Positions 16,309 to 46,502 are shown, numbered from the stretch's first letter. The stretch is DNA of 64,000 nt from an uncultured Desulfobacterales bacterium (GCA_964440795.1 CAYTTQ010000005.1:1415-65414), one strand, 5' to 3'. Numbers and translations are program-made. Notes: a model not told the origin generated them from the letters alone.

Positions 16309-18351
16309 ATGAATGAATTGATTAATTGGGAACTTTACAGCACGCTGGTGGGTATTGCCGGAGTGGTTTTCGTGCTGTTTCTAATTGGTGTCGTAAAGAG
16401 TGCCCCATCTGGGGATGAAAAGATGAACGAGATTGCTGAAGCAATCAAGGAAGGGGCCATCGCTTACCTGAATCGTCAGTTAAAGACCGTTTTTATCGCT
16501 GCAGCCGTGATTGTCATCATTATCGGAGCCACCATGGGAATTCAAACAGCCATCGGCTTCTTGATCGGTGCTGCGGCCTCTTACATTGCAGGGTATATCG
16601 GCATGCGGGTTTCCGTTCTGGCCAATGTCCGTACCGCTGAGGCCTCCAAGAAAGGGCTGGCCGCCGGTTTGGGAATGGCCTTTAAGGGCGGTACCGTAAC
16701 CGGGATGATCGTGGCCGGCCTGGCCCTCACCTCGGTAGCCGGCTACTACACCATTACCCACGACATTCGAGCCCTGGTGGCTTTGGGGTTTGGTGGCAGC
16801 TTGATCTCTATCTTTGCCCGTCTCGGCGGCGGTATCTTTACCAAGGGCGCCGATGTGGGTGCCGACCTGGTCGGTAAGGTAGAAGCCGGGATTCCCGAAG
16901 ACGATCCGAGAAACCCGGCGACCATCGCCGACAACGTCGGCGACAATGTGGGTGATTGTGCCGGCATGGCGGCGGACCTTTTTGAGACCTATGCGGTAAC
17001 CGCCGTGGCGGCCATGATGCTGGCCCACCTTGTCTTTCCGGAAGCGAAAGTGGGCCCGGAAGTCTATCACAACGCCGTAACCTTCCCGCTCGTTCTGGGT
17101 GCGGTATCCATCATCGCATCGATTATCGCCAGCTTTTTTGTCCGGCTGGGGAGTGGAAGCGAATACATCATGGGGGCCCTCTATAAAGGCATGTTCGGCT
17201 CGGCCATCATTGCGGGCGCGGCTTTCTACTGGGTGACCCAGAAAATGATGGGCGGCATTGGCATTCCGATCATGAACATCTATCTGGCCACTCTCGTGGG
17301 TCTGGTACTCACCGTGGGTATCGTTATTGTCACCGAATATTACACCGGGGTCCGCGGCCCGGTAAAGGCCATCGCACAGGCCTCCACCACCGGACATGGG
17401 ACCAACATCATCGCCGGACTGGCCGTCAGCATGCAGTCCACGGCGATTCCGGTACTCCTGATTTGTGCCGCTATTCTGGCATCTTATCTCTTAGCGGGTC
17501 TCTTTGGCATCGGCCTGGCGGCTATGAGCATGCTGTCCATGACCGGTATGGTTATCGCCATTGACGCCTATGGTCCCATCACCGATAATGCCGGCGGGAT
17601 TGCTGAAATGGCGGGAATGGACGAAAGTGTGCGGGCGGTTACCGATCCCCTGGACGCCGTGGGAAACACCACCAAGGCCGTCACCAAGGGATACGCCATC
17701 GGTTCGGCCGGCCTCGCCGCCTTGGTACTCTTCGCTGCTTACATCCAGGACCTGGTAGCCGAGATGAGTCACGCCTCCGGTGGTGCAGAGGAACTCATCT
17801 TTGACCTGGGCAATGTGTATGTCATTGTCGGGCTTTTTCTCGGCGGCCTTCTGCCCTTCTTGTTCGCCTCCATCGCCATGAATGCGGTGGGCCGGGCGGG
17901 CGCTCAGGTCGTCACCGAGGTAAGGCGGCAATTCCGAGAGATTCCCGGTATTATGGAGGGAACCGCCAAACCCGATTATGCCACTTGTGTCGATATCGTA
18001 ACACGCTACGCCCTTAAGGAGATGATTGTTCCGGCACTCTTGCCGGTGGTGGTGCCCGTTCTTGTGGGATTCTTCCTTGGGAAAATCGCCCTCGGCGCAC
18101 TACTGATCGGCAGTATCGTGACCGGTATTTTCGTAGCCATTTCCATGACCACCGGCGGGGCGGCTTGGGATAACGCCAAGAAATATATCGAAGACGGTCA
18201 TTTCGGCGGCAAGGGCAGCGACGCCCACAAGGCAGCCGTAACGGGTGACACGGTCGGCGATCCGTACAAGGATACCGCCGGGCCGGCCATCAACCCGATG
18301 ATCAAGATCCTGAACGTTGTTGCCCTCCTGATGGTCCCCTTCTTGATTTAG
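16309..18351 (+). CDS. hppA: Membrane-bound proton-translocating pyrophosphatase (K+-independent type by the GNTTKA Lys)
   Basis: 680 aa polytopic protein. [19 protein letters not shown] and [19 protein letters not shown] motifs. Lys rather than Ala in GNTT(K/A)A is the classical K+-independence marker. Confidence 0.95.
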
Positions 18352-19134: not shown

Positions 19135-20118
19135 TTGAAATCATCAGGTGTATCGGTCATCACATTTCGTGCAACTAACAGGGAAGCCGGGCGTCGACTG
19201 GATAGTGTGTTGGCCGCCCGGTTTGCTTTTCTATCCCGTTCTCAGGCCAATCAACTAATCCGGGAAAATCGGATCCGGGTCAACGGCACGGCCACAAAGG
19301 CAGCCTATCTTCTCAGACCTAACGATTCGGTACGGGGGGTCATTCCGCCGTTGTCGGATCCTCACTCTCCGCCTCTGGTAGAACCGGAACCGATCTCTCT
19401 TGACATCCTATTTGAAGACGATCAGATCATCGTATTGAACAAGCCTCCCGGGGTCATAGTCCATCCCGCGCCGGGCCACGCCGGCGGAACCCTGGTCAAC
19501 GCCTTGGTTTACCACCACCCCGACATCAGCAGGGTGGGAGATCCCGCCCGTCCGGGTATCATTCATCGTCTCGATAAGGATACCTCCGGCACCCTGATCG
19601 TTGCTAAAACAGCACCGGCTTATAATCACCTAAAAAAGGCGTTTAAGCATCGGCAGGTCCAGAAGCAATACTTGGCCCTGGTCTATGGGCGGATTGCGGA
19701 TACGGCCGGCGTCATTCAAACGCCCGTGGGCAGGCACCCCGTCCACCGAAAGAAGATGTCTACCGTAAGCCCTCGAGGGCGACCTGCAGAAACAGAGTGG
19801 CGTATACGAAGCGTGTTGAATTCCGCCACCCTGATCGATGTCCGGATACGAACGGGGCGAACTCACCAGATTCGCGTCCATTGCGCCGATATGGGGCATC
19901 CGGTTGTCGGAGACATCCGCTACGGCGGCAAAAAGCGCTGGAAGGAAGCAACCGCTTCGGAATATATCCGCCGAATGCTTCAGTCGGTAAACCGCCAGAT
20001 GCTCCATGCTTGGCGGCTGACATGTGTTCACCCATCGCTCGGTCGCGAGCTGTGCTTTGAATCTCCGGTACCGGAAGACATGGCCGGGGTCATCAAGGCC
20101 TTGCAATCGGTGGATTGA
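19135..20118 (+). CDS. rluD: RluA/RluD-family 23S rRNA pseudouridine synthase (S4 domain plus catalytic domain)
   Basis: S4-like N-terminus (RLDSVLA..SRSQANQLIRENRIRVNG). Catalytic HRLDKDTSG motif. TTG start, uncertain. Confidence 0.88.
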   Translation: MKSSGVSVITFRATNREAGRRLDSVLAARFAFLSRSQANQLIRENRIRVNGTATKAAYLLRPNDSVRGVIPPLSDPHSPPLVEPEPISLDILFEDDQIIVLNKPPGVIVHPAPGHAGGTLVNALVYHHPDISRVGDPARPGIIHRLDKDTSGTLIVAKTAPAYNHLKKAFKHRQVQKQYLALVYGRIADTAGVIQTPVGRHPVHRKKMSTVSPRGRPAETEWRIRSVLNSATLIDVRIRTGRTHQIRVHCADMGHPVVGDIRYGGKKRWKEATASEYIRRMLQSVNRQMLHAWRLTCVHPSLGRELCFESPVPEDMAGVIKALQSVD

Positions 20119-20122
20119 TAAT

Positions 20123-20587
20123 TCATCGCTGACACGGGAGAAACAGAATGTCCGATTGTGGCATATGACTTCCGTTGCACCACCGACGACGATACTTTGA
20201 TAATGCGGCTGTCGCCCACCGAAAATGGCTCCCATGTTCCTTGCCTTGGCCTGCCAGGTGATAAAAATGGAGGATATGATTGTAAATATACTCCGCACCC
20301 ATAGCCAGGTTTCTTAACAGCGTTCCGCCCCAAAGCACTTTCGCCCCGAAGGCCGCATCCAAGGCTCTGACACTGGCCATCTGATGAACGCTGTAACATA
20401 CACCGCAGAAACGGCTGGTCACAAAGGAGGCGTCCCTGGGATCTCTTCCCTGCAACAGGGCCTCAAATCCCCGGGCCATAGTACCGCTACTCCAAGCGTC
20501 TTTTACCTTGCCGTCTTCCACCTCAACCGTTATGCCAAGGTGTCCTTCAATTCGTGTTACCGGATCGACCGTAATCATCTTACCCAT
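20123..20587 (-). pseudogene. [NiFe]-hydrogenase large subunit, N-terminal stump only (homology ~20251-20587)
   Basis: VDPVTRIEGHLGITVEVEDGKV...RFCGVCYSVH (RxCGxC Ni-binding motif)...HFYHL, then unrelated residues up to a stop 4 nt from the convergent rluD stop. Retains a strong AAGGAGGTGAT RBS. Full-length large subunits are several-fold longer, and no small-subunit gene is present. Confidence 0.7.
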
Positions 20588-20796: not shown

Positions 20797-22890
20797 CTAT
20801 ATGTCACGATCGTAACAGGTCAAACAGCACCGCATACACCGATTCGCCTCTTTTAAGGCATCCCCTTCGCTGATCGTCAAATCCACCTCGGCGTACGTAT
20901 GCTGTCGTTCATATGAACCCGGTTCCAGTTCGGGTTGGCCGATACGGCCCTTTTTCTGAACACCTTCCACATGTTCGAATATGGTCCCGGGGATATGCCC
21001 GGTCATCCGTCCCGAATCGACTCGAAGCCTTGTCTCGGGGAAGGCCATTTCCTCGCCCACAAGATACTTGTGGATGCCCCGGGCGGCCCGCCTCCCCGCC
21101 CCGATGGCGGTAACCAAAAGTCCCGGCGGTCCGGCGGAGTCACCACTTGAAAAGACATACGGAATATCCGTTTGCTGCGTGTCCGGATCACAGACAATGG
21201 CCCCTTTCTGTGTTGAAAGTCTGGCCACGGCGGCGCCTTCCTCATTGACAAAGGAAGAATCCGTTACCTGGCCGATCGCCAAGACAAAGTTGTCCAGGGG
21301 AAGCACCGTTTCCGACCCTTCGATGGGCACCGGTTTTTGCCGCCCGCTGGCGTCGGGTTCTCCAAGTTCGTTTTTCAGATACTCGATACCGGTAAGGTTC
21401 CCGTCTTCGTCCGTGACGAACTTGGTCGGCGTACACAGCGTAATAAATTCGATGCCTTCGTGCTTACACGCCTCGATTTCCACCTGATTTGCCGGCATGT
21501 CCTTGATCTCTCTTCGGTACAGGCAGTAAACCTTTTCGGCGCCTAAGCGCACACTGGTTCGCAGGGCATCCATGGCCACATTGCCGCCCCCGATGACACC
21601 GACGCGCTTGCCGATCGGATTGGCCTCACCCAGACCTTGGCGTCTCAAAAAGATCGTCGCCGGAATAACCCCTTTGACTTTGTCTTCGTCGGGAATACGT
21701 GCCGACGCGTGATTCCATGCACCGATAGATGTAAGTACGGCGTCGTACCCAGCGCCCACGAGGGATTCCAAATCGAAGTCCACGCCGAACTTCACCCCCG
21801 TTTTGACTTGAACCCCAAGGTCGAGTATCCGTTGCACATCCTGACCCAGTATCTTCTTGGGCAGGCGATATTCCGGAATCCCATAGTAAATCATACCCCC
21901 GAGCTCCGGCATCCACTCATAGATCTTCACCTGGTGACCCAGCCGCCTCAAGAAAAATGCCGCACTCAAACCACTCGGACCGCCGCCCACAACGGCCACT
22001 TTGAATCCGGTATCCGGCGCCACCGGGATATTAATGGGCGCATTGTTATCAAATACCCAGTCGGAGCAAAACCGTTTTAGCTGGTTGATGGAAACGGGGT
22101 CGTCACCGCCCACCGCCCGGCGGCATGCGTCTTCACAGGGATGCGGACAAACCCGACCGATGGAAAGAGGCATGGGATTTCGTTCCATGATCGTCAGATA
22201 GGCCTGATCATATTCTTCATGTTTAATGTGGTCGATATACTTCGGGATATTGATTTCGGCAGGGCAGGTCTGCCGACAAGGGGCCAACCGATCCGTTCGC
22301 TCATGAAATCGCAAGACCCGCTGAGAAGGCGTTCTCACCTGCATGATGCCTTTGGGACATACGGACTGGCAAGCGCCGCAACCGACACAATTTTCAACCT
22401 TCACCACCGGGACGTTATCCGGCCCCATCTCCAGGGCGTCGAATAGACATGACTTAACACAAGTGCCGTATCCCAGACACCCGACGGTACACTCCTTGGC
22501 GCCCCCATAGAGCTGGGCGGCGGCTCGACAATCACTGATGCCCATATAATAGTACTTTTCCGGCGCCCGGAACCCTCCCGTACAGGTATTTTCGGACGTC
22601 AACGGTTCGGCGGCACCCACTTCCATGCCCATGACCGCCGCCGCACGGGTTGCGGAACCGGCTCCCCCGACGATGCAGGCGCTCACCGGGGCTTCCCCGG
22701 ACACAATAGCGGCGGCACAAGCACTGCATCCGGTATATCCGCACCCCCCGCAATTGGCACCGGCCAAACAGTCCTCAACTTCGGCAATCCGCGGGTCTTC
22801 CCAAACATAAAAGACCTTTGAGGCAATCCCCAGCAGGGTTCCCGAAACAGTCCCCAATCCCAACATGACAAGCAAGGCGTCTATCATCAT
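20797..22890 (-). CDS. rnfB: RnfB-like Fe-S subunit fused to a GltD/NfnB-type FAD/NAD(P)H oxidoreductase (697 aa)
   Basis: aa 1-~190: RnfB N-terminus (TM helix, AGANCGGCGYTGCSACAAA) plus a 2x[4Fe-4S] ferredoxin region (CVKSC.., CVGCGACQSVCP). aa ~200-697: CRQTCPAEINIPKYI..VCPHPCEDACRR, then VAVVGGGPSGLSAA and VGVIGGGNVAMD Rossmann motifs. Last gene of the rnf operon. Confidence 0.85.
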   Translation of the reverse strand: MMIDALLVMLGLGTVSGTLLGIASKVFYVWEDPRIAEVEDCLAGANCGGCGYTGCSACAAAIVSGEAPVSACIVGGAGSATRAAAVMGMEVGAAEPLTSENTCTGGFRAPEKYYYMGISDCRAAAQLYGGAKECTVGCLGYGTCVKSCLFDALEMGPDNVPVVKVENCVGCGACQSVCPKGIMQVRTPSQRVLRFHERTDRLAPCRQTCPAEINIPKYIDHIKHEEYDQAYLTIMERNPMPLSIGRVCPHPCEDACRRAVGGDDPVSINQLKRFCSDWVFDNNAPINIPVAPDTGFKVAVVGGGPSGLSAAFFLRRLGHQVKIYEWMPELGGMIYYGIPEYRLPKKILGQDVQRILDLGVQVKTGVKFGVDFDLESLVGAGYDAVLTSIGAWNHASARIPDEDKVKGVIPATIFLRRQGLGEANPIGKRVGVIGGGNVAMDALRTSVRLGAEKVYCLYRREIKDMPANQVEIEACKHEGIEFITLCTPTKFVTDEDGNLTGIEYLKNELGEPDASGRQKPVPIEGSETVLPLDNFVLAIGQVTDSSFVNEEGAAVARLSTQKGAIVCDPDTQQTDIPYVFSSGDSAGPPGLLVTAIGAGRRAARGIHKYLVGEEMAFPETRLRVDSGRMTGHIPGTIFEHVEGVQKKGRIGQPELEPGSYERQHTYAEVDLTISEGDALKEANRCMRCCLTCYDRDI

Positions 22891-22897
22891 CTATCTC

Positions 22898-23545
22898 CTA
22901 AATCATCCCCTTGAATCCCAGAAAGGCCAGCGACATGAATCCCGCCGTCACCAATGCAATGGCCACGTCCTGCAAGGGCCCCGACACCCGCCCGATGGTG
23001 ACCCGGTCGCGCATCCTCTTGTCGATCAAGGCAACGCCGGTCCTTTTTCGGGCCGTCACCCGTCCGACATTGATTCGCTCCCGAAGGCCGGCGAAAAGAA
23101 TAAGCGCCAACCCAAAACCGGCAGAATAGGACAAAGAAGAAACCAGCATCTCCAGAAAATTGTACTCCTCCGTGACATTGATCAAACAGACCCCCATGAC
23201 GGCGCAGTTGGTGGTGATCAGAGGCAGGAAAATCCCGAGACCGGCATACAACGCCGGTATGGTCTTTTTGAGGAACAACTCCACGAATTGGACCAACGAA
23301 GCGATTACCAGAATAAACACGATCGTTCGAATATATTCCAGGCCCAGCGGCTTAAGGAACACCATCTCCAAAATCCATGTAACGATGCCGGCCATGGCCA
23401 GCACGAAGATCACCGCCATGGCCATGCCTGTGGCCGTCTCCATCTTTTTGGAGGTTCCCAGAAAGGGGCAGTTGCCCAAATACTGAATCAACAAGATGTT
23501 GTTCACTAGGATGGCGCTTACGGCCAGCAACATGTAATCTCCCAT
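22898..23545 (-). CDS. rnfA: Rnf complex subunit A
   Basis: ILVNNILLIQYLGNCPFLG..LPLITTNCAVMG..LVTAGFMSLAFLGF. Carries a ~22-aa basic insertion before the last helix. Confidence 0.9.
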   Translation of the reverse strand: MGDYMLLAVSAILVNNILLIQYLGNCPFLGTSKKMETATGMAMAVIFVLAMAGIVTWILEMVFLKPLGLEYIRTIVFILVIASLVQFVELFLKKTIPALYAGLGIFLPLITTNCAVMGVCLINVTEEYNFLEMLVSSLSYSAGFGLALILFAGLRERINVGRVTARKRTGVALIDKRMRDRVTIGRVSGPLQDVAIALVTAGFMSLAFLGFKGMI

Positions 23546-23627
23546 CAGATGACTCCTTCATCGCCTCCGTTTTTCAGAAGGACGGCTAACCAGAAACCCT
23601 TTTATCGCCAAATCGGTCCACCAGTGT

Positions 23628-24242
23628 CTATCCCTTATTCCCCACCAGGTCCATCAACCCCAGCATCAGGCCCAAACAGACAAAAGCCCCGGGCGCCTCC
23701 ACCATAAACGTGAAGGGCTGGAAAGAGGGCCCGAAAAGCGGAATCACTTGGTCTGTTAAAGGAATGGAGACCGTTCCGTTGCCCAGGATTTCGCGAACAG
23801 CACCAACCGCGGTCAGCGAAAGAGTAAACCCCAGACCGATGCCGAGCCCGTCTGCGGCCGCATAGGTCACACGGTTCTTGAAGGCAAAGGCTTCGGCGCG
23901 CCCCAAAATGACACAGTTCACCACAATGAGCGGTATGAAAATGCCCAGCTGCAGAAACAAAGGATAAGCGACCGCCTGCATCACCAGCTCCACCACCACA
24001 ACAAAGGTGGCGATAATAATGATAAAACAGGGCACCCGAACCTTAACCGGGATTATGGATCGCAGTATGGAGACCAGAACGTTGGAACACAACAGTACGA
24101 AGGTGGCGGCCACCCCCATGCCGAACCCGTTGGCCACCGATTTGGTTACCGCCAAAATCGGACACAGGCCCAGCACCAGCCGGAAGGGTGGGATCTCTTC
24201 CCACAACCCCTTGGTGAATTCTTGAACAATCGTCTTGGCCAT
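23628..24242 (-). CDS. rnfE: Rnf complex subunit E
   Basis: FRLVLGLCPILAVT..IPLIVVNCVILGRAEAFA signature. Position between rnfG and rnfA. Confidence 0.9.
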   Translation of the reverse strand: MAKTIVQEFTKGLWEEIPPFRLVLGLCPILAVTKSVANGFGMGVAATFVLLCSNVLVSILRSIIPVKVRVPCFIIIIATFVVVVELVMQAVAYPLFLQLGIFIPLIVVNCVILGRAEAFAFKNRVTYAAADGLGIGLGFTLSLTAVGAVREILGNGTVSIPLTDQVIPLFGPSFQPFTFMVEAPGAFVCLGLMLGLMDLVGNKG

Positions 24243-24253
24243 TATTTCTCCCC

Positions 24254-24835
24254 CTAGTCGGTAACGGACTTCGCCTTTTCAACGATTTTCGGTTTCAGTC
24301 GTTCGTAGAAATCGGCGCTCTTGTTAATTCCCGTACACACACCTTTAGACGTAATGGTTGCTCCGGAAACGGCGTCCACATCATCAACCTCGATGGGGTC
24401 TTTTAAGGAAAGCCCCTGGAAACTGTTTTTGAACGCCTGGTCGGTTTTGGCTCTGGCGCCCAAGCCGGGCGTTTCGGAGTGAGTGGTAATGCCTACCCCT
24501 ACGAGTTGGTCGGTTTTGAGATCCACCCCGACCATGATGCCGATATCTCCGCCGTAACCCTTTCCAAAGGCCTCGTAGGCAACGGCCGTCGGTCTATTTT
24601 CAAACTTGCCCACAAAAAACGTCCGTTCCGTATCCCCGTCCATGAGCTTGAATCGATCCTGAATGGGATCGTTGGCTGCACCTTCCAAAATTGCTTTTAT
24701 GGCCGGCCCTTTTACAAATTTAAGCTGCTGGACCTCAATCTGTTTCGCCGTCCCGGACTTAACGGCCGCCAGCAACGCGCCGGAACATGCGGCCAGGAGG
24801 CCGAGAACCACGATCATCCGGATGATATCACGCAT
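24254..24835 (-). CDS. rnfG: Rnf complex subunit G (FMN-binding)
   Basis: Start at MRDIIRM with AAGGTGG RBS. Covalent-FMN motif DAVSGATITSKG. Confidence 0.88.
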   Translation of the reverse strand: MRDIIRMIVVLGLLAACSGALLAAVKSGTAKQIEVQQLKFVKGPAIKAILEGAANDPIQDRFKLMDGDTERTFFVGKFENRPTAVAYEAFGKGYGGDIGIMVGVDLKTDQLVGVGITTHSETPGLGARAKTDQAFKNSFQGLSLKDPIEVDDVDAVSGATITSKGVCTGINKSADFYERLKPKIVEKAKSVTD

Positions 24836-25805
24836 TTTCAACCACCTTTCCAACCGCTTTCGGTCTAATTTTGTCGAGGAGAGGGTTGGCGAGATTCAAC
24901 AACAGAATGGAAAATGGAACGCCGTCTACGTAGGCCCCCACATTACGAATCAACACGGTCATGAGGCCGGCCAGGCCGCCGAATATCAGCATGGGAATAA
25001 GGTTGACCGGGGATGAGGAATCTTCCGGAACCAGGAAAAATGCGGCGATCAACGTATAACCGGTAAACAAGTGGAATAGGGGACCGGCGTATGCGGTGGA
25101 ATCGGACAGATTAAACAGCCATGCCGTGATGAAGACACCCGCCAAGAAAGAAAGGGAGAGTTCCCACCGTACGTACCCTCTCAGGATCAGGTATATGCCT
25201 CCGATCACCAGTCCCAGCCCGAAAGTGGACCCGACCCCGCCGATCTGCTTGCCCATAAACAAGTCACCGACACTAAAGTGGGCAATACCCGCCGTTCCCA
25301 GGGCCTTCAAGTCGGCAAGGGGATAGGTCATGGCAAACCCCAATTCGTAATTACGCAGGGCCGTATTGAAGTCAAAGATACTTGCAAACGAAATGACCAG
25401 CATCGCCAAGGCCAGCAAGGGGGGATTTAAGGGGTTCAGACCGAGGCCGCCGAATATTTGTTTGCCTATGATGATCGCCAAAAACGTGCCCAAAACGACA
25501 ATCCACCAAGGTGCGGTCGCGGGTAACAGCATCCCGAACAAGAGGCCGGTTACCGCCGCGCTTCCGTCACCGATGGAAATACGCTTGCCGAGCAACAAGT
25601 TCATGATAAATTCCCAAATGACGGCCGACGCCGTCGCCAGGGAGATCATGCCCAGCGCCGGACTGCCATATTGGCTGATTCCCATGATTACTGCAGGAAG
25701 TGCAGCAAGCATCATCTGCCGATGCCTGGATGAAACCGTTCTGCCGTCATGCCAGTAGGGGGCATAAGAAACAACCAGTTTTTCACCACTTAAGTCCCTA
25801 TTCAT
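24828..25805 (-). CDS. rnfD: Rnf complex subunit D
   Basis: Polytopic NqrB/RnfD-like protein. The start overlaps the rnfC stop (ATGAATAG). Confidence 0.9.
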   Translation of the reverse strand: MNRDLSGEKLVVSYAPYWHDGRTVSSRHRQMMLAALPAVIMGISQYGSPALGMISLATASAVIWEFIMNLLLGKRISIGDGSAAVTGLLFGMLLPATAPWWIVVLGTFLAIIIGKQIFGGLGLNPLNPPLLALAMLVISFASIFDFNTALRNYELGFAMTYPLADLKALGTAGIAHFSVGDLFMGKQIGGVGSTFGLGLVIGGIYLILRGYVRWELSLSFLAGVFITAWLFNLSDSTAYAGPLFHLFTGYTLIAAFFLVPEDSSSPVNLIPMLIFGGLAGLMTVLIRNVGAYVDGVPFSILLLNLANPLLDKIRPKAVGKVVENA

Positions 25806-27090
25806 TTTCTGCCTCCGCGGCTTCCCTTAGGCCCAGTTCGCGCTTTGCCATCTGAATATACTGAAAAATTGGAATCCTGGACGGACACACATATGCACAC
25901 AAGCCGCATTCAATACAACATGCCAATTCATACATATCTCTGGCATCTTCGTAAAGGCTTGCTTCCAAAAAGCGAATGAGCATGTTTACCGGTATCTTAA
26001 CCGGACAGATCTTAATGCACTCTCCACAGTTGATGCAGGGATGATCCGCCAACAGCGGGCTTTCCTGCTGATCTTGTACCACCAGGCCGTCTGTTTGGGG
26101 CTCTACGGGCAGTTCGTCCGAGTAGGTAGCGTTCCCTCTCATCGGGCCACCCAAGACCAGCCGGTCGCGATCCTTGACGGTAATACCACAGGCCCCAAGC
26201 AGTGCTCGTAAGGGAGTCCCGATCCTGACTTTCAGATTGGTGGCCTTTCCGCCTTTCCTGACAACGCTGACCATTTTAGTGACGCACAGTCGGCCCGTGT
26301 CCACGCAGGCCCCCAAGGCGGCAACCGCTTCTGCGCTGATAAAGAACGCCCCGGCCTCCTCCGGTGTCTGACCTTCCGGTATCACGGTTCCCACAACGTC
26401 TTTCATAATCATGTGCGGTAGGCCGGACGGATACTCGACGCTCAAGGCCTTCGCCTCCGCACCGGTCGAAATCGCTTGTTGCACCATACCCTCGGGGACA
26501 GTGAGTAAAATGCGATCCACACCCGTCATATCTTTGAGCGCCTTAACTCCTGCCTTGACGGCGTCAAGCTCGTTGTGGATGATAATTTGATTGGCGGTCA
26601 AAAGCAAATCCTGGTCCTGGCCGCATATGACGATCATCCGTATTGAGGTGTTCGGATCGGCAAAGGTGCGGAAGGACGGGTTGCCCGGCAGATATTCAAA
26701 GAAGCGAAGGGCGGTGTCCAGTGAGGCGCCCCCCGTATATTCATCATCCCATTCGTCTTTTTCGTCAGCAGCGATGGTTATGGCGGTATACGATTGTTCA
26801 AATATGCCTCCGTAGGGATAGACTTCCCCGAAAGAACCGACATAGGGAAATAGACTGGAGATGGTCCCGGTTACGGAAGAAATGACATAGGTTGAGCTTT
26901 CGGCGGACTTACTCAATCTCTGGCCGGTTTTCACCTTGGCCCCGACCTCGAGATCCCCCCCCGCTTCGGGATTGTCGTCTCTCAACAGTAGGGTCACACT
27001 CTTCGGCACTTTAAGCTCTTGAACTTCATCCGGAACCACGTTGTAGTTCAGTTTCGGCCTCATAATTCCCAGAAACGGTCTTTTTATCAT
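25798..27090 (-). CDS. rnfC: Rnf complex subunit C-like, with a degenerate NADH/FMN-binding region
   Basis: Start MIKRPFLGIM at 27090; the listed 95-aa extension overlaps the cytochrome gene and was rejected. RnfC_N barrel and C-terminal 2x[4Fe-4S] (CINCGECIKICP, CIECGLCAYVCP) are present. The expected GxGGAGFP / ECEPY blocks read YLPGNPSFRTF / CGQDQDL. Confidence 0.85.
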   Translation of the reverse strand: MIKRPFLGIMRPKLNYNVVPDEVQELKVPKSVTLLLRDDNPEAGGDLEVGAKVKTGQRLSKSAESSTYVISSVTGTISSLFPYVGSFGEVYPYGGIFEQSYTAITIAADEKDEWDDEYTGGASLDTALRFFEYLPGNPSFRTFADPNTSIRMIVICGQDQDLLLTANQIIIHNELDAVKAGVKALKDMTGVDRILLTVPEGMVQQAISTGAEAKALSVEYPSGLPHMIMKDVVGTVIPEGQTPEEAGAFFISAEAVAALGACVDTGRLCVTKMVSVVRKGGKATNLKVRIGTPLRALLGACGITVKDRDRLVLGGPMRGNATYSDELPVEPQTDGLVVQDQQESPLLADHPCINCGECIKICPVKIPVNMLIRFLEASLYEDARDMYELACCIECGLCAYVCPSRIPIFQYIQMAKRELGLREAAEAENE

Positions 27091-27124
27091 AATACGATCC
27101 CCTGTGTTGGTATCCCTGTTGGCC

Positions 27125-27496
27125 TTAGTACTGCAAGTGGCATGTAGCGCATTCAACCGGACCGGCGCCGCTTTCTTCATGACAGCCCTGGCAATTGGTA
27201 TGGAAGGCATCCGATCGGGTGGGTTCGGTGTCCGCACCATGGCAGTAAGGTCCGCCACACCCCATGCCTCCGTCATCTTGCTCGTAGTGATGACAATCCT
27301 CGCAGTAAAAGCCGTAACCATCCTCGGACAAATGGGTTTGATGATCAAACAGGACCTTACCGGCACTTGTGTCAAATACCAGTCTTACCGGTTCATCGGG
27401 AACTTCCTGGGGAAACGATGCGTAACACACTACGCCGATAATGAGCAAGATGGCCGCCAGGCCATAAATAAACAACAGTTCCATCTTTGATGTCAT
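27125..27496 (-). CDS. Membrane-anchored tetraheme cytochrome c (c3-like)
   Basis: N-terminal hydrophobic anchor (LLFIYGLAAILLIIGVV). Four heme motifs: CEDCH, CGGPYCH (CX4CH), CQGCH, CATCH. First gene of the rnf operon. Confidence 0.8.
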   Translation of the reverse strand: MTSKMELLFIYGLAAILLIIGVVCYASFPQEVPDEPVRLVFDTSAGKVLFDHQTHLSEDGYGFYCEDCHHYEQDDGGMGCGGPYCHGADTEPTRSDAFHTNCQGCHEESGAGPVECATCHLQY

Positions 27497-30590: not shown

Positions 30591-32366
30591 TCACATCAAG
30601 AGGAAAACCAACACCAGAAAAATCGTGGCCACTGCCGCGCTGATGCCCACGGGCGCCGTACCCGTTTCCAGGGCCGCTCGCGTCCTGGCGATCTTGCGCT
30701 GCAACGCCTCGCCTTTTGTCCCGACGGCGGACCAGAGCGGAACCAAGGTTCCCAACGTTAAAATCTCGGGCAACCGCCTGGAAAGTCGACCCAGGACCCT
30801 AGGCACCCCCCGGGCGAAAAGGCGGTCTGACACACCGTTGATGCCGTTAAATACCTTGTCCGCTGCGTAATAGAATAGACGGCCACCCATCCGGTAAAAC
30901 CGGTCCACATCCAGGTTCACACACCGCTTCTCCGGCGGATAGACGCCCGCAAGCATCAGAAGAACAAAGGCCGCCGCCGCAAACAGAAGAAGTTGGGCCA
31001 TCCCCACTACGTGGGCGCCGGTGTAAGGGGCGAAATCCACCACCGGATAAGGCAACAGGTCATACAGCGGATAGGGATAAAGACCGATGGCAATGCACAA
31101 AAAGGCGGCGATCCCCATGGCAAAACGCATGTTGAGCGGTGCCTCTTTGGGCCGCATTCCGGAGTCGTGCCCGAAGAAGGCGAAATAGGGGACCTTGATA
31201 CCGGCGTGCTCCAGCACCCCAACGGAGGCGAACATCAACAGAAACCAGACCACCACCATGTGATGATTGCCCACCGCCGTTATGGTCATCGACTTGGTGA
31301 CGAATCCGCTCAGCAAGGGAAACCCGGATATGGATGCCGCAGCGATGATACAGCATGTCGCCGTGAAAGGCATCGTTCGGTACAGTCCGCCCAGAGCGGT
31401 GCAATTGATCTTGCCGGTTCGGTGGAGGACCGCCCCCATGGACATGAACAACAGGGCCTTGTAGATACAGTGGGCAAAGACGTGAGATACGGCACCGTTG
31501 ATGGCCATCTGTGTGCCGACGCCGATGCCGCACACCATATAACCGACCTGGTTGATCAGGCTGTAACTCAATACCCGTCGCAAGTTGTTTTCGATAACGG
31601 CAAAAAAGACCGGAAACACGGTCATGATGGCGCCTATCCAAATCAGGATTTCCGTGCCGGCAAACCCTCTGGCCAAGGTATAGACGGCTGTCTTGGTCGT
31701 ATAAACGCTCAAAAAAACCGTTCCCGTGGGAGTGGCTTCAGGATAGGCGTCAGGGAGCCACGCATGGAAAATCGGCCAAGCCGAGTTTATCCCGAAGCCC
31801 AGGAAGATCAATAGGGACGACGTCCCGTTCAACCCGATATGTCCAAATTCGATACTCCCCGTTTCTTTCAGGTGCAGCACGATTCCCGCCAAGAGCACCA
31901 GCCCGCCCACGGCGTGAACCAAAACGTAGCGATATCCCGCCCGGGTGGACTGAGTCGTCCGGCGGGACCAGATAAGAATGGCCGAACCGACGGTGAGCAT
32001 CTCCCAGAAGAGAAACAGTGAAAGGAGATCTCCTGCGAAAACGACACCCAGGGCGCTTCCCGAATAGATGAGCCCCGCCACGTGTTGCAGGTCGTCTTTG
32101 ACATGCAGGGCATAGAGTAAGGAGGTAAAAGCGATGATATGGTAGACATATCCAAAGAGGAGGCTCATCTTGTCCATTCTGCCGAAGACGATATCCTGGC
32201 CAAAGGCGGAAACGACGAAATGTGTGCCCTCGGGGATATGGATCAGGTTGAGGAAACCGATCACCGGCACAAGCAACATGAAGGCGCTTTTCCACTTGCC
32301 TTTGATCAGCGGAACCAGCAGGCCCCCGACAATGAATATGGCCGCCGGCGGTACGGTGCTAATCAT
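30591..32366 (-). CDS. Antiporter-like subunit (NuoL/MrpA/MrpD family) with a C-terminal amphipathic extension and terminal TM helix
   Basis: Proton_antipo_M-type body (LFLFWEMLTVGS..). The extra ~100-aa tail (RFYRMGGRLFYYAADKVFNG...GISAAVATIFLVLVFLL) recalls a NuoL-type lateral helix. The ATG overlaps the upstream stop (ATGATTAG). Confidence 0.85.
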   Translation of the reverse strand: MISTVPPAAIFIVGGLLVPLIKGKWKSAFMLLVPVIGFLNLIHIPEGTHFVVSAFGQDIVFGRMDKMSLLFGYVYHIIAFTSLLYALHVKDDLQHVAGLIYSGSALGVVFAGDLLSLFLFWEMLTVGSAILIWSRRTTQSTRAGYRYVLVHAVGGLVLLAGIVLHLKETGSIEFGHIGLNGTSSLLIFLGFGINSAWPIFHAWLPDAYPEATPTGTVFLSVYTTKTAVYTLARGFAGTEILIWIGAIMTVFPVFFAVIENNLRRVLSYSLINQVGYMVCGIGVGTQMAINGAVSHVFAHCIYKALLFMSMGAVLHRTGKINCTALGGLYRTMPFTATCCIIAAASISGFPLLSGFVTKSMTITAVGNHHMVVVWFLLMFASVGVLEHAGIKVPYFAFFGHDSGMRPKEAPLNMRFAMGIAAFLCIAIGLYPYPLYDLLPYPVVDFAPYTGAHVVGMAQLLLFAAAAFVLLMLAGVYPPEKRCVNLDVDRFYRMGGRLFYYAADKVFNGINGVSDRLFARGVPRVLGRLSRRLPEILTLGTLVPLWSAVGTKGEALQRKIARTRAALETGTAPVGISAAVATIFLVLVFLLM

Positions 32367-32619
32367 AGTAATCCTCTCGTCTCTCAACTATCGGCCGCAG
32401 AATGTATTTGGCCACCACCACCACGAATACGAAGGCGACAAAACCAAAAACCGCATAAAACTCGGGCCAGTTCTCCCACGGGAAATGGGCGTGCTTGTGA
32501 ATCACAAAATCGGCGATCAACAAGAGGGCGAGCACGGCCAAACAACATCCCATGATGATCTTCACGTTCCTCGGGTTGTCGAAAAAATAACCCTTTTCTT
32601 CAGATGTGTGCTGTGCCAT
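32359..32619 (-). CDS. Small two-TM membrane protein (86 aa), function unknown
   Basis: Two hydrophobic helices (IIMGCCLAVLALLLIADFVI, FYAVFGFVAFVFVVVVA). Tightly packed in the operon, with a GGGAGA RBS. Confidence 0.55.
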   Translation of the reverse strand: MAQHTSEEKGYFFDNPRNVKIIMGCCLAVLALLLIADFVIHKHAHFPWENWPEFYAVFGFVAFVFVVVVAKYILRPIVERREDYYD

Positions 32620-32639
32620 GCCCAGGTCTCCCGCTTCGC

Positions 32640-32786
32640 CTACAGGGTGGCGGCAAAGATCACCGCCAGGTATACGGCCCCGATGGCGGTTACCACAAAA
32701 AGGATCTTCTTGAAAGGCGGTACACCGTCATGCTGGAGTACCATTTTTCCTTCTATTTCATCACTTCTTTCGATCGTCATCGTCAT
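32640..32786 (-). CDS. Small single-TM protein (48 aa), function unknown
   Basis: The ATG overlaps the upstream stop (ATGA). One helix (ILFVVTAIGAVYLAVIFAATL). The longer listed ORF overlaps the mrpD-like gene and was trimmed. Confidence 0.45.
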   Translation of the reverse strand: MTMTIERSDEIEGKMVLQHDGVPPFKKILFVVTAIGAVYLAVIFAATL

Positions 32787-34264
32787 ATTCCCACAATCCG
32801 ATTCACCGTCATGGTGGCCAGCTCTAGAAAAGGCTGGGGATAAAACAACAGGGCGATGGAGATTATCGCTGTAATCACCAGCGGTACCACGCAAAAAGCC
32901 GGTGCCTCTTTTACTTTGTTCTCAAAAAGGGCGTCTTCGGGCTTACAAAAGAAGGCCTTGTAGACGATCGGCATAAAGTATGCGGCGTTCAGCAGCGAAC
33001 TGAGAAGTAACACCACCACGATGGCCCCTTGACCGGCTTCCAACGATCCCAACAGAAGATACCACTTACTCCAAAATCCCCCGCCCGGGGGAAGCCCCGT
33101 AATACTTAAGGCGGCAATAAAAAAAGCGGCCATCGTCACCGGCATTCTCCTGCCGATGCCGATCATCTCGCTGATGTTTTTCCGCCCGGTGGCCACGAAT
33201 ATCGCCCCGGCACAAAAGAAGAGGGTAATCTTCCCGAAGGCATGCATGGCGATATGGAGCATGCCCCCTGTCATCCCTTTCGGCGATAACAGGCCCACAC
33301 CGAGTACGATGTAAGACAGCTGGGCAATCGTCGAAAACGCCAAGAGCCGCTTAAGGTTATCTTGGGACAGCGCGATCAATGAACCGATGAGAATCGTCGC
33401 CGAGGCGGCCACGAGCAAAATCCAGTTCAGATTGAGGGAAAGCAACAGGTCTGTTCCGAAGACGCCCGTAACGACCCGCACTACGCTGAACACGCCGACC
33501 TTGACCACGGCTACCGCGTGCAGCAGGGCGCTGACCGGCGTAGGAGCCACCATGGCCGCAGGCAACCATGAATGGAATGGCATGATCGCCGCCTTGGCAA
33601 ACCCAAAAACCAGTAACACCAAGAGGAGGGCCATTAACCCTTTGGATCCCGTTCCCGCCAGGAACCCCTGCCGACCGAACTCGAGCGTGCCCGAAAGATC
33701 ATAGCAAATCAGCATTGCCGGCAAGACAAACCCGATGGACGTGCCCATAATGTACAACAGATACTTCCGACCGGAACGGCGGGCTTCCTCGTCTTGATGA
33801 TGGGTAACCAGGGGATAGGTAGCCAGGGAAAGCATTTCATAAAAGAGATACATGGTTAAAAGGTTGGCGGAAAAGGCGACACCGATGGTGGCGGACAGGG
33901 CAAGGGCAAAAAAGCAAAAATATCGCGTCTGACTGTGTTCGTTCTCCCCGCGCATGTATCCAATGGAATAAGCGGAAGTAATGATCCACAAAGATGAAGA
34001 AACCAGGGCAAAGAGCATTCCCAGGGAATCGACTCGAAACTGAATGGCCGCCCCCGGCAGGAACTCGGCCACGGTGTATACGATTTCCGTACCTTTTAGA
34101 ATGGTCGGAACCATCGACAACACGATCAGGAATTTTACGCCGGCGGCCGCAAAAGTCCAGGCTTCCCTCACATTCGGCGCCCTGCTCGACGCCAGGATGG
34201 GCGTCACCATCAAGGAAACCAAAACGGCGAGAAGCGGTTTTACGGATACGATGGTATCGGTCAC
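32783..34264 (-). CDS. mrpD: Antiporter-like subunit, MrpD/NuoM/N family (copy 2)
   Basis: 493 aa. LYLFYEMLSLATYPLV, HSWLPAAMVAPTPVSALLHAVAVVK motifs. The GTG start overlaps the upstream TAG. Confidence 0.88.
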   Translation of the reverse strand: MTDTIVSVKPLLAVLVSLMVTPILASSRAPNVREAWTFAAAGVKFLIVLSMVPTILKGTEIVYTVAEFLPGAAIQFRVDSLGMLFALVSSSLWIITSAYSIGYMRGENEHSQTRYFCFFALALSATIGVAFSANLLTMYLFYEMLSLATYPLVTHHQDEEARRSGRKYLLYIMGTSIGFVLPAMLICYDLSGTLEFGRQGFLAGTGSKGLMALLLVLLVFGFAKAAIMPFHSWLPAAMVAPTPVSALLHAVAVVKVGVFSVVRVVTGVFGTDLLLSLNLNWILLVAASATILIGSLIALSQDNLKRLLAFSTIAQLSYIVLGVGLLSPKGMTGGMLHIAMHAFGKITLFFCAGAIFVATGRKNISEMIGIGRRMPVTMAAFFIAALSITGLPPGGGFWSKWYLLLGSLEAGQGAIVVVLLLSSLLNAAYFMPIVYKAFFCKPEDALFENKVKEAPAFCVVPLVITAIISIALLFYPQPFLELATMTVNRIVGI

Positions 34265-35757
34265 TAGATGAGCCCCTTCGGTATGGCAATTCGAATGATG
34301 TGATCCACAATATCTCCCGTGTATAGGCCGACCAGAATGAGTCCGGCAGCTACGATCAACAGCGGAAGGACCATACTGAGCGGCGCTTCGTTCATCGGTT
34401 CGGGATGATGGTCGTGACCGTGATGGTCGGAAAAAGGCTCAAAATAGCCGATTTCGATGACCCGAAAGAAGAGCACAACACTCACCAGACTGCTGAACAG
34501 GAGCGCGACCATGAAGTGATACTGTCCGGATTGGATGGCCCCGGTAATAAGATACCATTTACTGAAGAAACCGCAGGTCGGTGGCACGCCGATAATGGAA
34601 ATGGCTCCAATGACGAATCCCCCCATGGTAAAGGGCATTTTCTTGAACAGCCCCTGGAGATTCTCGAAGTGGTGGCCCTTTTTCCGGTATACGATATTGC
34701 CTACAGCCAAAAAGACACACAGCGTCATGAGGGCATCGTTTACGATGTGCAGAATCGCCCCGGTCATTCCCGCCCGGTTTCCAAGCCAGGCACCCCCCAC
34801 CATGTACCCGACCTCGGCAACAATGATGTAGGTCAACATCTTCTTGAGACTCCGCTCCTTCAAGGCAAGGAAAGCGGCCACCACGATGGCGACGACGGCA
34901 AACCACACCACCGCCTTGCTGATGGCCAGCGTGGTGAAGGTGAAATCCGGGGTGAATACGGTCAGGATCAATCGAATCATGACATAGATCATCACCTTCG
35001 TGGCCAAAGGTGCGATGAGGCTGCTGGACGGAGAAGGTGCATGGGTATACGAATTGGGCAACCAGGCATGAAGCGGGAAAAAACCCATCTTCAACCAGAC
35101 CCCTACCATACAGATGACGAAGGCGGCCACCACGGCCTTGGACTCGTAAATGGACGGCAACCGTTCGGCGATGTCCACCATATTCAAGGACCCCGTCATG
35201 ATGTAGAGATAGCCCACGCCGAGCAGATAAAAGCAGGCCCCGATGGTTCCCATGTACAGGTAATTCAGGGTGGCCAGCGGTGCGCGGCCTTCTTCTCCCA
35301 TGGCCAGCAATCCATATCCGGTCAGTGCGGCGATTTCCAGGAGCACATAGAGGTTAAAGGCGTCCCCGGTGGCCACGATACCCAGCAATCCGGTAACCAT
35401 GAGAACGTACAGGGTGTAAAAGGCGCCTTGATTGTCGGGAAACTTCTGTTCGATGCTCTTTTTCGCCGGAATGAGGTTGGCCAGTGCCACGACCGAAACC
35501 ACCACGAGCACCAACGCATTCAGGTGATCGACATAATAAGCGATTCCCCACGGGGGGTCCCATCCCGCCAGCCGGTAAACGATGACGCCCTCGTTGATGA
35601 CCCGAAACAGGAGCCCGACGGCCGAAGCGGTGGCCGTCACCAGAGCCGCAAGTGCGATCGGAAAGCAGAGCCGCTTGTTCGCCCATCCGGCAGCGCTGAT
35701 CAGTAACGCGGACAGGAGGGGGACAACGACCACGAGTGCGGGATATTGTTGACTCAT
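34264..35757 (-). CDS. mrpD: Antiporter-like subunit, MrpD/NuoM/N family (copy 1)
   Basis: 497 aa. LYVLLEIAALTGY, HAWLPNSYTHAPSPSSSLIAPLATK motifs. ATGA overlap with mrpC. Confidence 0.88.
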   Translation of the reverse strand: MSQQYPALVVVVPLLSALLISAAGWANKRLCFPIALAALVTATASAVGLLFRVINEGVIVYRLAGWDPPWGIAYYVDHLNALVLVVVSVVALANLIPAKKSIEQKFPDNQGAFYTLYVLMVTGLLGIVATGDAFNLYVLLEIAALTGYGLLAMGEEGRAPLATLNYLYMGTIGACFYLLGVGYLYIMTGSLNMVDIAERLPSIYESKAVVAAFVICMVGVWLKMGFFPLHAWLPNSYTHAPSPSSSLIAPLATKVMIYVMIRLILTVFTPDFTFTTLAISKAVVWFAVVAIVVAAFLALKERSLKKMLTYIIVAEVGYMVGGAWLGNRAGMTGAILHIVNDALMTLCVFLAVGNIVYRKKGHHFENLQGLFKKMPFTMGGFVIGAISIIGVPPTCGFFSKWYLITGAIQSGQYHFMVALLFSSLVSVVLFFRVIEIGYFEPFSDHHGHDHHPEPMNEAPLSMVLPLLIVAAGLILVGLYTGDIVDHIIRIAIPKGLI

Positions 35758-36164
35758 TTCTTCCTTATCTGTGCCAGGATTTCATCTTCTTCGAGCGTGT
35801 TGTAGTGCTTGTACACCCGAAGGGCCAGGGCCAGCGCCACACCCAGCGTTGCCACTCCGACGACAATAGCTGTGAGCATGAGCACATGGGGCAAGGGATT
35901 CATGTAATCCGCCGCGTGGACCGCATGAGAACCGGCCCCGTGCGCCGCCGGTCCGTGACCATGTTCCAGAATCGGAATGGTGGCTCCTTTTTTGGCTCCT
36001 ATGGATACGTAAAAAAGGACGATCGCGGTCTGAAAGATATTCATGCCCAGGATCTTTTTCACCAGGTTATTTTTTGAAATGATCGCATAGAGGCCGATCA
36101 TCATCAGGGTAATGTAAATCCAGTAGTTATATTTTGCGACCACCAGTTCGAGAAAGTCGGGCAT
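35754..36164 (-). CDS. mrpC: MrpC/MnhC (NuoK-like) subunit
   Basis: NYWIYITLMMIGLYAIISKNNLVKKILGMNIFQTAIVLFYV signature. Confidence 0.85.
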   Translation of the reverse strand: MPDFLELVVAKYNYWIYITLMMIGLYAIISKNNLVKKILGMNIFQTAIVLFYVSIGAKKGATIPILEHGHGPAAHGAGSHAVHAADYMNPLPHVLMLTAIVVGVATLGVALALALRVYKHYNTLEEDEILAQIRKK

Positions 36165-36167
36165 GAT

Positions 36168-36998: not shown

Positions 36999-37240
36999 TC
37001 CTTGGTCCTCCTGGTGGTCCTGAAAACAGCCGCAACGAAGAAAACCGTGCTTACCCCGGCCCCGACCGAAGCCTCTGTAAAAGCCACATCCACCGCACCC
37101 ATGATGGTCCAAAGCAGACACATCATAAAACTGTACGAACCGAAAAGTATGGCGGCACCCAACAGATCCCTGACCATGAGCGACCCGATAGCGGCAATCA
37201 CCACCAAAGTAAGAATGGCCAAGTCAAGTTGCCAGATCAC
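36995..37240 (-). CDS. DUF4040-type small subunit (MrpA C-terminal / MbhD-like)
   Basis: 81 aa, three helices. AILFGSYSFMMCLLWTIMGAVDVAFTEASVGAG resembles DUF4040. Confidence 0.75.
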   Translation of the reverse strand: MIWQLDLAILTLVVIAAIGSLMVRDLLGAAILFGSYSFMMCLLWTIMGAVDVAFTEASVGAGVSTVFFVAAVFRTTRRTKD

Positions 37241-44698: not shown

Positions 44699-44710
44699 TT
44701 TTAAATTTCC

Positions 44711-46465: not shown

Positions 46466-46502
46466 TCACATATCCTCTTTCAATTGCGTATTTCCGTCGC
46501 AA

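Follow-up and report, generated by a model that had tools for sequence, protein, structure and literature searches.

An Rnf2 (Tol2-type) operon with a GltD/NfnB-type module fused to RnfB and an RnfC lacking FMN/NADH signatures in an uncultured Desulfobacterales bacterium

This study deals with an rnf operon on the minus strand at positions 20797-27496 of a 64,000-nucleotide (nt) stretch of DNA, hereafter the window, from an uncultured Desulfobacterales bacterium (GCA_964440795.1, CAYTTQ010000005.1:1415-65414). Seven genes separated by intergenic gaps of -26 to +82 nt make up the operon. All six Rnf subunits (C, D, G, E, A, and B) are encoded together, and each is matched by Pfam as well as NCBIfam. 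In operon order, with lengths in amino acids (aa), the genes are:

27125-27496, minus strand: cytochrome c3-family gene, 123 aa, first gene of the operon
25798-27090, minus strand: rnfC, 430 aa
24828-25805, minus strand: rnfD, 325 aa, membrane subunit
24254-24853, minus strand: rnfG, 199 aa (longest open reading frame, ORF)
23628-24242, minus strand: rnfE, 204 aa
22898-23545, minus strand: rnfA, 215 aa
20797-22890, minus strand: rnfB fusion, 697 aa, last gene

This order, a tetrahaem cytochrome c followed by rnfC-D-G-E-A-B, had been read from the sequence in an earlier note on this DNA, and both the ORF calls and the domain scans bear it out. The longest ORF for rnfC, which opens with a TTG at 27375, would share about 250 nt with the cytochrome gene. 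The likely start is an ATG at 27090, located 34 nt past the cytochrome stop, with a 430-aa product that fits the lengths of orthologues and the gene called in independent assemblies. The whole operon is identical in one of four independent assemblies (L081-L084), and a promoter and terminator scan of the operon returned counts equal to the shuffled expectation.

The last gene encodes a 697-aa protein without internal stops, which divides into two parts:

22285-22890, minus strand: RnfB part, aa 1-202, with a transmembrane (TM) helix, an FdI [4Fe-4S] domain (CGGCGYTGC...C), an FdII domain with 2x[4Fe-4S], and a 20-aa linker
20797-22284, minus strand: GltD/NfnB-type module for flavin adenine dinucleotide (FAD) and reduced nicotinamide adenine dinucleotide phosphate (NADPH), aa 203-697, with Fer4_20, the FAD motif GGGPSG, the NADPH motif GGGNVAMD plus YRR, and a C-terminal RCxxC...C tail

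Residues 2-194 match RnfB, both in NCBIfam and in the solved structures 9eri_B of A. woodii and 7zc6_B of C. tetanomorphum, with Pfam matches to PF04060 at residues 42-73 and to Fer4 at 137-182. Residues 197-692 match NF009410 of NCBIfam at 474 bits, with Pfam matches to Fer4_20 at 203-282 and to Pyr_redox_2 at 296-599; residue 200 corresponds to nt 22293. Domain scans and PDB alignment thus agree with the earlier description of a normal RnfB over the first ~190 aa that continues without a stop, from about residue 200, into a GltD/NfnB-like module, and all of the domains expected there (RnfB iron-sulfur (FeS), Pyr_redox_2, and Fer4_20) were matched. In an alignment of 60 orthologues, VCPHPCEDACRR and both Rossmann motifs are invariant, as are the FAD-motif residues G302, G304, P305, and G307, the NADPH-motif residues G434-G436, N437, A439, and D441, the residues Y458-R459-R460 and G583-D584, the module cysteines C205, C209, C248, C252, and C256 together with the C-terminal C685, C688, and C692, and every FeS cysteine of the RnfB part. 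The GltD-like part therefore carries the FAD- and NAD(P)H-binding residues ascribed to it, and a module devoid of cofactor residues is ruled out. Across the junction (about 22250-22330) there is neither a missed stop nor a frameshift: four assemblies made independently from different sequencing runs (L081-L084) carry exactly the same DNA there, and public data hold >100 full-length fusion orthologues (about 690-705 aa, 54-100% identity), the named ones belonging to Desulfobacterales, Syntrophales, Desulfatibacillaceae, and Ca. Desulfarcum. The GC content at third codon positions is alike in both halves of the fusion (0.635 and 0.627).

An AlphaFold2 (AF2) model of the fusion has a pLDDT of 82. 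Its closest solved relatives by Foldseek and sequence search are 9BOV_A and 9N5U_A (NfnABC) and 8OH5_C (StnC), followed by NfnB, GltD, and DPD. Alignments to the NADPH-binding subunits of NfnABC/StnABC run through the C-terminal 'EAxRCxxC' tail and include the same YRR motif, which is common to these NADPH-using relatives. Judged by these alignments, the fused module is of the Stn/NfnABC subtype and most likely NADPH-specific, and from homology to StnC and NfnA its RCxxC tail would complete a cluster in the Fer4_20 domain. The window also encodes a StnC-like protein (42605-44698) that is 37% identical to the fusion over 530 aa. Because this alignment begins inside the last RnfB [4Fe-4S] motif, it suggests that the last RnfB cluster takes the place of the one from which the GltD module is fed in Stn/NfnABC.

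RnfC has lost the signatures of its flavin mononucleotide (FMN) and reduced nicotinamide adenine dinucleotide (NADH) site and kept the motifs of its clusters:

26596-26694, minus strand: remains of the FMN/NADH pocket in the degenerate RnfC (alignment to solved RnfC and 25 canonical RnfC)
25882-26037, minus strand: two CxxCxxCxxxCP [4Fe-4S] motifs of RnfC, CINCGECIKICP and CIECGLCAYVCP (motif and conservation)

The protein was compared with three solved RnfC and with 25 canonical RnfC of other genomes. YLPGNPSFRTF at 26662-26694 stands where G(L/M)GGA(T/G)FPT of canonical RnfC aligns (LPGNPSFRT), CGQDQDLLLT at 26596-26625 stands where (A)ECEPY(L/I)T aligns (GQDQDLLLT), and the canonical YPQG(A/G/S)EK reads YPSGLPHM. 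The first two replacements had already been pointed out, for the GxGGAGFP and ECEPY positions, and are confirmed by the alignment. Both profiles stay below threshold, Complex1_51K scoring 24.5 bits (cut-off 31.2) in a match that begins at profile position 24, and TIGR01945 scoring 184.8 bits (cut-off 245.95). Neither a regular-expression search of the full RnfC sequence nor its alignment to the three solved proteins revealed an intact FMN/NADH loop elsewhere, which rules out its preservation at another position. The loss is one of motifs and profile score, not of fold: the AF2 model (pLDDT 79) matches the RnfC structures 8ahx_C, 9eri_C, and 7zc6_C end to end (TM about 0.65), with NqrA next (about 0.55), and the N-terminal barrel and SLBB-like parts are still predicted. 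Over 51 orthologues, seven of the eight cluster cysteines are invariant and one is conserved in at least 90%. As far as motifs can tell, the only recognisable pyridine-nucleotide site in the operon is the one on the RnfB fusion.

Two further flavin sites lie in RnfD and RnfG:

25314-25340, minus strand: RnfD segment GFAMTYPLA, which aligns with the flavinylation site [ST]-x-A-T-P-L of canonical RnfD
24347-24367, minus strand: RnfG flavinylation motif SGATITS, intact

In characterised RnfD, the [ST]-x-A-T-P-L site bears covalently bound FMN. The RnfD of the window is matched by Pfam NQR2_RnfD_RnfE at 292 bits, and alignment to 7zc6_D, 9eri_D, and 26 canonical RnfD places a Tyr at the covalent-FMN Thr position. 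RnfG scores 231 bits with NCBIfam RnfG_DVU2794, over the cut-off of 205, and by this match bears a Desulfovibrio-type signature. Both conserved Cys are present in RnfA and likewise in RnfE. By its motifs, the input half of the complex (RnfB FeS domains, RnfA/RnfE, and the RnfG-FMN motif) is intact, and the flavin sites of RnfD and RnfC are without signatures. The cytochrome carries four haem motifs (CEDCH, CGGPYCH, CQGCH, and CATCH), eight His, and an N-terminal hydrophobic segment (signal or anchor); Pfam Cytochrom_CIII matches it at E=6.8e-10, and the NCBIfam TmcA-like model at 47 bits, below its cut-off. A tetrahaem cytochrome c is thus indeed co-encoded with Rnf, as the periplasmic link considered possible in the earlier note had supposed.

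RnfA contains, as a separate observation, a 24-aa basic insertion (NVGRVTARKRTGVALIDKRMRDRV) ahead of its last helix (approx. 23000-23075, minus strand), which is absent in all other RnfA inspected (alignment of about 60 sequences). Gene calls in the independent assemblies L081-L084 likewise give an RnfA of 215 aa, and a DNA repeat search for the origin of the insertion found no duplication.

Operons of other genomes were surveyed by a genome scan seeded with the RnfB N-terminus, which gave 80 loci that were classed by BLAST and alignment. The counted set consists of 47 operons with a complete rnfC, namely 25 canonical ones (Clostridia, Bacteroides, and others) and 22 with a degenerate RnfC (window included); RnfD counts are based on 26 canonical RnfD and 23 RnfD of degenerate-RnfC operons (window included):

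RnfB form: canonical, short in 25/25; degenerate-RnfC, GltD-fused in 20/22 and short in 2/22 (L043, L044)
RnfC with all three FMN/NADH motifs: canonical, 25/25; degenerate-RnfC, 0/22
RnfC with two CxxCxxCxxxC motifs: canonical, 25/25; degenerate-RnfC, 22/22
RnfD with Thr at the flavinylation position: canonical, 26/26; degenerate-RnfC, 2/23 (L015 and L039; the preceding Ala is missing in each)
Multihaem cytochrome gene directly upstream of rnfC: canonical, 0/25; degenerate-RnfC, 17/22 (4-11 haem motifs)

The GltD fusion and the degenerate RnfC thus co-occur, the fusion being found in 20 of the 22 degenerate-RnfC operons versus none of the 25 canonical ones. The full [ST]-x-A-T-P-L motif of RnfD is present in 26/26 canonical proteins and lost in 21 of the 23 from degenerate-RnfC operons, the other two retaining the Thr only, and the RnfG SGAT motif and the four RnfA/RnfE Cys are retained in both operon classes. 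Desulfosarcina alkanivorans, Desulfocarbo indianensis, Pseudodesulfovibrio, and metagenome-assembled genomes (MAGs) of Geopsychrobacteraceae and Fibrobacteraceae are among the sources of the 20 fused operons, and the gene order of the window recurs in many Desulfobacterales MAGs as well as in Desulfosarcina alkanivorans, whose strain PL12 (L010; 51% RnfB and 41% RnfC identity) is the closest cultured relative seen. An uncultured Desulfobacula MAG (L018) shows 60% RnfB and 38% RnfC identity. The two exceptions to the fusion, the MAGs L043 and L044 (Ca. Desulfofervidaceae and Thermodesulfobacteriota), combine a short (~275 aa) RnfB with an RnfC without FMN/NADH motifs and an RnfD without the flavinylation Thr. 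No GltD gene lies downstream in either, so that a split RnfB plus GltD arrangement is rejected and both are genuinely short-RnfB operons. L044 has a four-haem cytochrome gene upstream of its rnf operon, and the operon of L043 is preceded by an Mvh-type hydrogenase/MvhD-HdrA-like cluster. From their gene content, L043 and L044 may represent a nucleotide-independent ferredoxin:cytochrome c form. The cytochrome link is therefore independent of the fusion, since L044 has the cytochrome and a degenerate RnfC/RnfD, yet a short RnfB without a nucleotide site.

In Desulfovibrionaceae/Pseudodesulfovibrio (L011, L012, and L042), a DhcA-like cytochrome gene with ten haem motifs lies ahead of the fused-type operons, and the entire Gly-loop segment of RnfC is deleted, not substituted. 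In Desulfosarcina, Desulfotignum, Desulfobacula, and other MAGs (L022-L031), membrane-anchored RnfB::GltD paralogues with 35-38% identity to the window protein are encoded away from rnf genes and in varied surroundings; their neighbours are NuoF-like and RseC-like genes in L028, a formate-dehydrogenase-like pair in L023, and, on the downstream side, PpaC in both L023 and L024. Members of this paralogue subfamily also occur inside the rnf operons of L017, L020, and L021.

Domain scans, >100 orthologues, a shared gene order, and published descriptions that match feature by feature make it almost certain that the locus is a genuine chromosomal Rnf2 (Desulfobacula toluolica Tol2-type) operon of Desulfobacterota. 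The architecture is already published, and the window holds one more copy. Dörries et al. 2016 (PMC5109826), citing Wöhlbrand et al. 2016 (Proteomics 16:973) from the Rabus group, describe the Tol2-type Rnf with an RnfB of ~700 aa that has an NAD-binding domain and an RnfC without the NADH-ubiquinone oxidoreductase/FMN domain; they place the same type in D. multivorans (Rnf2) and D. autotrophicum, with subunits found in membrane proteomes. According to a later report (Sci Adv 2025, PMC11887813), Rnf2 belongs to the Desulfobacteraceae core genome, is abundant and constitutive in six strains, and also occurs in Desulfarculus baarsii and D. salexigens; its cluster includes a cytochrome c3, through which electron delivery to Qrc and menaquinone is proposed by the Rabus group, and the supplement terms the remaining Rnf2 subunits 'very similar'. 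The window operon shares with this type the ~700-aa RnfB (first ~200 aa ordinary, the rest a pyridine-nucleotide oxidoreductase), the RnfC without FMN signature, the cytochrome c3 gene, and the Desulfobacterales host, and there are no substantive differences, D. toluolica and D. multivorans being compared by published description. The earlier note knew of no characterised Rnf of this architecture, which is literally true in that no member has been biochemically characterised, but the architecture itself had been published as Rnf2/Tol2-type (PMC5109826, PMC11887813). Beyond the published accounts, the present analysis adds that the module has NfnABC/Stn affinity and a YRR motif, that the modelled RnfC keeps its fold and N-terminal barrel, and that RnfD has lost its flavinylation motif, none of which is mentioned in the passages of PMC5109826 and PMC11887813 that treat the complex. 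It also adds a quantified association of the cytochrome, RnfC, and RnfB states across 47 operons. The mode of action of Rnf2 is reported as unverified in the literature, and for D. alaskensis it is recorded that the formation of an ion gradient coupled to ferredoxin:NAD+ could not be demonstrated in vesicles despite attempts (PMC4841214).

With canonical Rnf, the Na+/H+ ferredoxin:NAD+ oxidoreductase solved from A. woodii (9ERI), C. tetanomorphum (7ZC6), and A. vinelandii (8AHX), the window operon has in common the six subunits in rnfCDGEAB order, the RnfA/RnfE Cys pairs, the covalent-FMN motif of RnfG, an RnfB with TM helix, FdI, and FdII, and an RnfC fold with two [4Fe-4S]. It differs in the loss of the RnfC FMN/NADH motifs and the RnfD FMN Thr, the gain of the FAD/NADPH module on RnfB, and the co-encoded cytochrome c.

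The model that we favour, with our confidence evenly balanced for and against, is that the complex of the window acts as an NADPH/ferredoxin:cytochrome c oxidoreductase in which electrons leave RnfG for the cytochrome. The NfnABC/Stn-type module on RnfB would oxidise NADPH at its FAD, and single electrons would pass from there through the two [4Fe-4S] clusters of the module into the RnfB clusters, where reduced ferredoxin probably still enters as well. Electrons would then cross the membrane via RnfA/RnfE to the covalent FMN of periplasmic RnfG. The canonical return path (RnfD-FMN to RnfC-FMN to NAD+) would be closed, and since the flavin sites of RnfD and RnfC have both lost their signatures, a hand-over from RnfG to the co-encoded, membrane-anchored tetrahaem cytochrome c3 is proposed. 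The latter would feed the periplasmic cytochrome/Qrc/menaquinone network that serves sulfate reduction, and Na+ or H+ would be translocated in the conserved A/D/E core. Exit to the cytochrome is favoured because the RnfC motifs are lost in 22/22 operons and the RnfD site in 21/23, the RnfG, RnfA, and RnfE sites are kept, and a cytochrome lies upstream in 17/22. NADPH has a potential of about -320 mV or lower and menaquinone of about -75 mV, and electron transfer from one to the other via c3 haems is downhill enough to allow ion pumping, as it is in Na+-NQR.

The earlier note had suggested that the nucleotide site moved from RnfC to the RnfB fusion. The sole recognisable site is indeed on RnfB and the RnfC signatures are lost, but relocation is only one reading of this: because the RnfD motif is lost as well and L043/L044 have a degenerate RnfC/RnfD without a GltD module, the pattern suggests that the cytochrome displaced the D/C flavin branch, and that the NADPH module at RnfB is an additional entry point and not the RnfC site in a new place. 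More tentatively, and with somewhat more doubt than belief, the proposal may be widened to the whole class of cytochrome-linked Desulfobacterota Rnf. The path would end at RnfG, giving an ion-coupled NADPH/ferredoxin:cytochrome c oxidoreductase as a third Rnf/Nqr wiring beside ferredoxin:NAD+ and NADH:quinone, and an ancestral ferredoxin:cytochrome c form like L044 would have acquired the GltD fusion later. In marine sediments, much of the oxidation of carbon that is coupled to sulfate reduction is the work of Desulfobacteraceae. If the complex is an NADPH/ferredoxin:cytochrome c pump, Rnf2 would fill a gap in the electron flow from NAD(P)H/ferredoxin to menaquinone/Qmo/Dsr and in energy conservation, and would be a natural example of Rnf rewiring as proposed for the origin of Na+-NQR.

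Several points weigh against exit to the cytochrome. The RnfC clusters are kept in 22/22 degenerate-RnfC operons, and because these [4Fe-4S] motifs persist in every operon, some electron traffic through RnfC would still be under selection, which the model leaves unexplained. Four of the 22 (L015, L021, L039, and L043) have no adjacent cytochrome gene. RnfD may yet bind FMN non-covalently, and what speaks for NADPH specificity is similarity of motifs. The Rnf2 cytochrome was undetected in published proteomes, which passages of PMC11887813 put down to its small size, and a search of the literature found no biochemical or structural characterisation of any Rnf2 member.

The main rival, which is disfavoured and which we regard as unlikely, is a ferredoxin:NADP+ oxidoreductase that keeps the canonical U-shaped path, with the GltD module docking on RnfC, taking electrons from the RnfC [4Fe-4S], and replacing the RnfC-FMN/NADH site, which takes the relocation suggested in the earlier note at its word. 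It would explain the RnfC [4Fe-4S] motifs kept in 22/22 operons and fits the joint occurrence of RnfC loss and RnfB gain in 20/22, but the RnfD flavinylation site that the return requires is lost, and both RnfC and RnfD are degenerate in L043 and L044, which have no GltD module. Solved Rnf shows a firm association between the soluble parts of RnfB and RnfC (PMC9588780); the former RnfC FMN loop is unconserved between fused clades and deleted in Pseudodesulfovibrio, so that no common docking pocket is evident. That complete oxidisers need an energy-conserving ferredoxin sink also speaks for the U-shaped path, whereas the linker from FdII to the GltD FeS domain, at about 20 aa and collinear with the Fer4-GltD junction of the StnC-like ORF, would favour direct wiring to RnfB and short-circuit such a path.

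A second alternative, quite improbable in our view, is bifurcation or confurcation at the fused flavoprotein in the manner of NfnB, with the NADPH electrons being split, one going to ferredoxin and one via the Rnf chain to cytochrome c and menaquinone, or the reverse. NfnB (4ylf_B, 5jca_L) is the next-closest solved relative after NfnABC/Stn, and the ferredoxin-like domain of RnfB adjoins the module, but no sequence feature marks a bifurcating FAD. In NfnABC and StnABC, moreover, bifurcation is placed at the HydB-type FMN subunit and not at the GltD-type FAD, and such a subunit is absent from the operon, the NuoE/NuoF-like genes of the window lying in a separate cluster at 42605-46973. That the fusion ORF or the degenerate RnfC stems from pseudogene decay or from an error in assembly or sequencing, as the unusual length of the ORF and a truncated hydrogenase gene next door might suggest, has next to no probability and is refuted by the same junction in four independent assemblies, full-length orthologues of both proteins (>100 for the fusion) with invariant cofactor residues, and published proteomes of cultured strains, in which subunits of the homologous complex were detected.

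Exit to the cytochrome, the wiring we favour, has parallels in two known systems, Na+-NQR for flavoprotein input on the RnfB side together with a degenerate RnfC homologue, and the Methanosarcina Rnf-cytochrome c system. Na+-NQR (V. cholerae) likewise anchors an NAD(P)H dehydrogenase flavoprotein at the RnfB/NqrF side, and its RnfC homologue, NqrA, is poor in cofactors. In contrast to the window operon, its NqrF belongs to the FNR-type FAD/[2Fe-2S] proteins and has no relation to GltD, its NqrA is without FeS clusters where the RnfC of the window keeps two, its NqrB keeps the covalent FMN and reduces quinone, and it has no cytochrome. An assignment of the operon to Na+-NQR was rejected: the sixth subunit matches RnfB and not NqrF, none of the Nqr subunit models comes near its cut-off, and the FeS motifs of RnfC are retained. 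Rnf of Methanosarcina acetivorans with MmcA (PMC4023990) shares the absence of NAD use at RnfC, a co-transcribed multihaem cytochrome c, and a proposed transfer from RnfG to the cytochrome, and differs in being archaeal, with ferredoxin as sole donor and methanophenazine as acceptor (PMC4023990). A fused flavoprotein module in its RnfB seems unlikely, the NCBIfam model of methanogen RnfB having 265 positions.

The NADPH subunit of NfnABC/StnABC (9BOV_A, 9N5U_A, 8OH5_C) and NfnB/GltD/DPD domain I-III resemble the fused module in Fer4_20, the FAD and NADPH Rossmann folds, YRR, and the 'EAxRCxxC' tail, with 34-38% identity over about 500 aa; in the window the module is instead fused to a membrane-anchored RnfB and not to a NuoG/HydA-like scaffold. 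The operon contains no HydB(NuoF)- or HydC(NuoE)-like partner genes, and its interpretation as an NfnABC/StnABC bifurcating transhydrogenase was rejected on this ground. A separate three-gene cluster on the minus strand was observed at 42605-46973:

46503-46973, minus strand: NuoE-like gene
44711-46465, minus strand: NuoF-like gene
42605-44698, minus strand: StnC-like gene, 697 aa

The NuoF-like protein keeps GRGGAGFSTG, as had been noted before. The StnC-like protein has 2Fe-2S, NuoG-type Fer4, Fer4_20, and Pyr_redox_2 domains and is without the large C-terminal FDH/HydA-like domain of solved StnC and NfnA. Going by this StnABC/NfnABC-like composition, the cluster may encode a bifurcating NADH/NADPH/ferredoxin transhydrogenase.

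Other neighbours of the rnf operon were observed as follows:

30591-37121, minus strand: antiporter-like cluster of the Mrp/Mbh type with several subunits (MnhB/MbhE and three Proton_antipo_M proteins), immediately upstream of the rnf region
20123-20587, minus strand: 154-aa ORF directly downstream of the rnfB fusion, matching the first ~74 positions only of the [NiFe]-hydrogenase large-subunit profile
19135-20118: RluD-like gene, abutting the 154-aa ORF
16309-18351, plus strand: membrane pyrophosphatase (HppA), downstream of the rnf region

With the antiporter-like cluster upstream and HppA downstream, ion-motive machinery is clustered around the rnf operon. The 154-aa ORF has RIEGH and RxCGxC and diverges afterwards; it looks like a truncated hydrogenase remnant, and the same ORF is found in the independent assemblies L081-L083.

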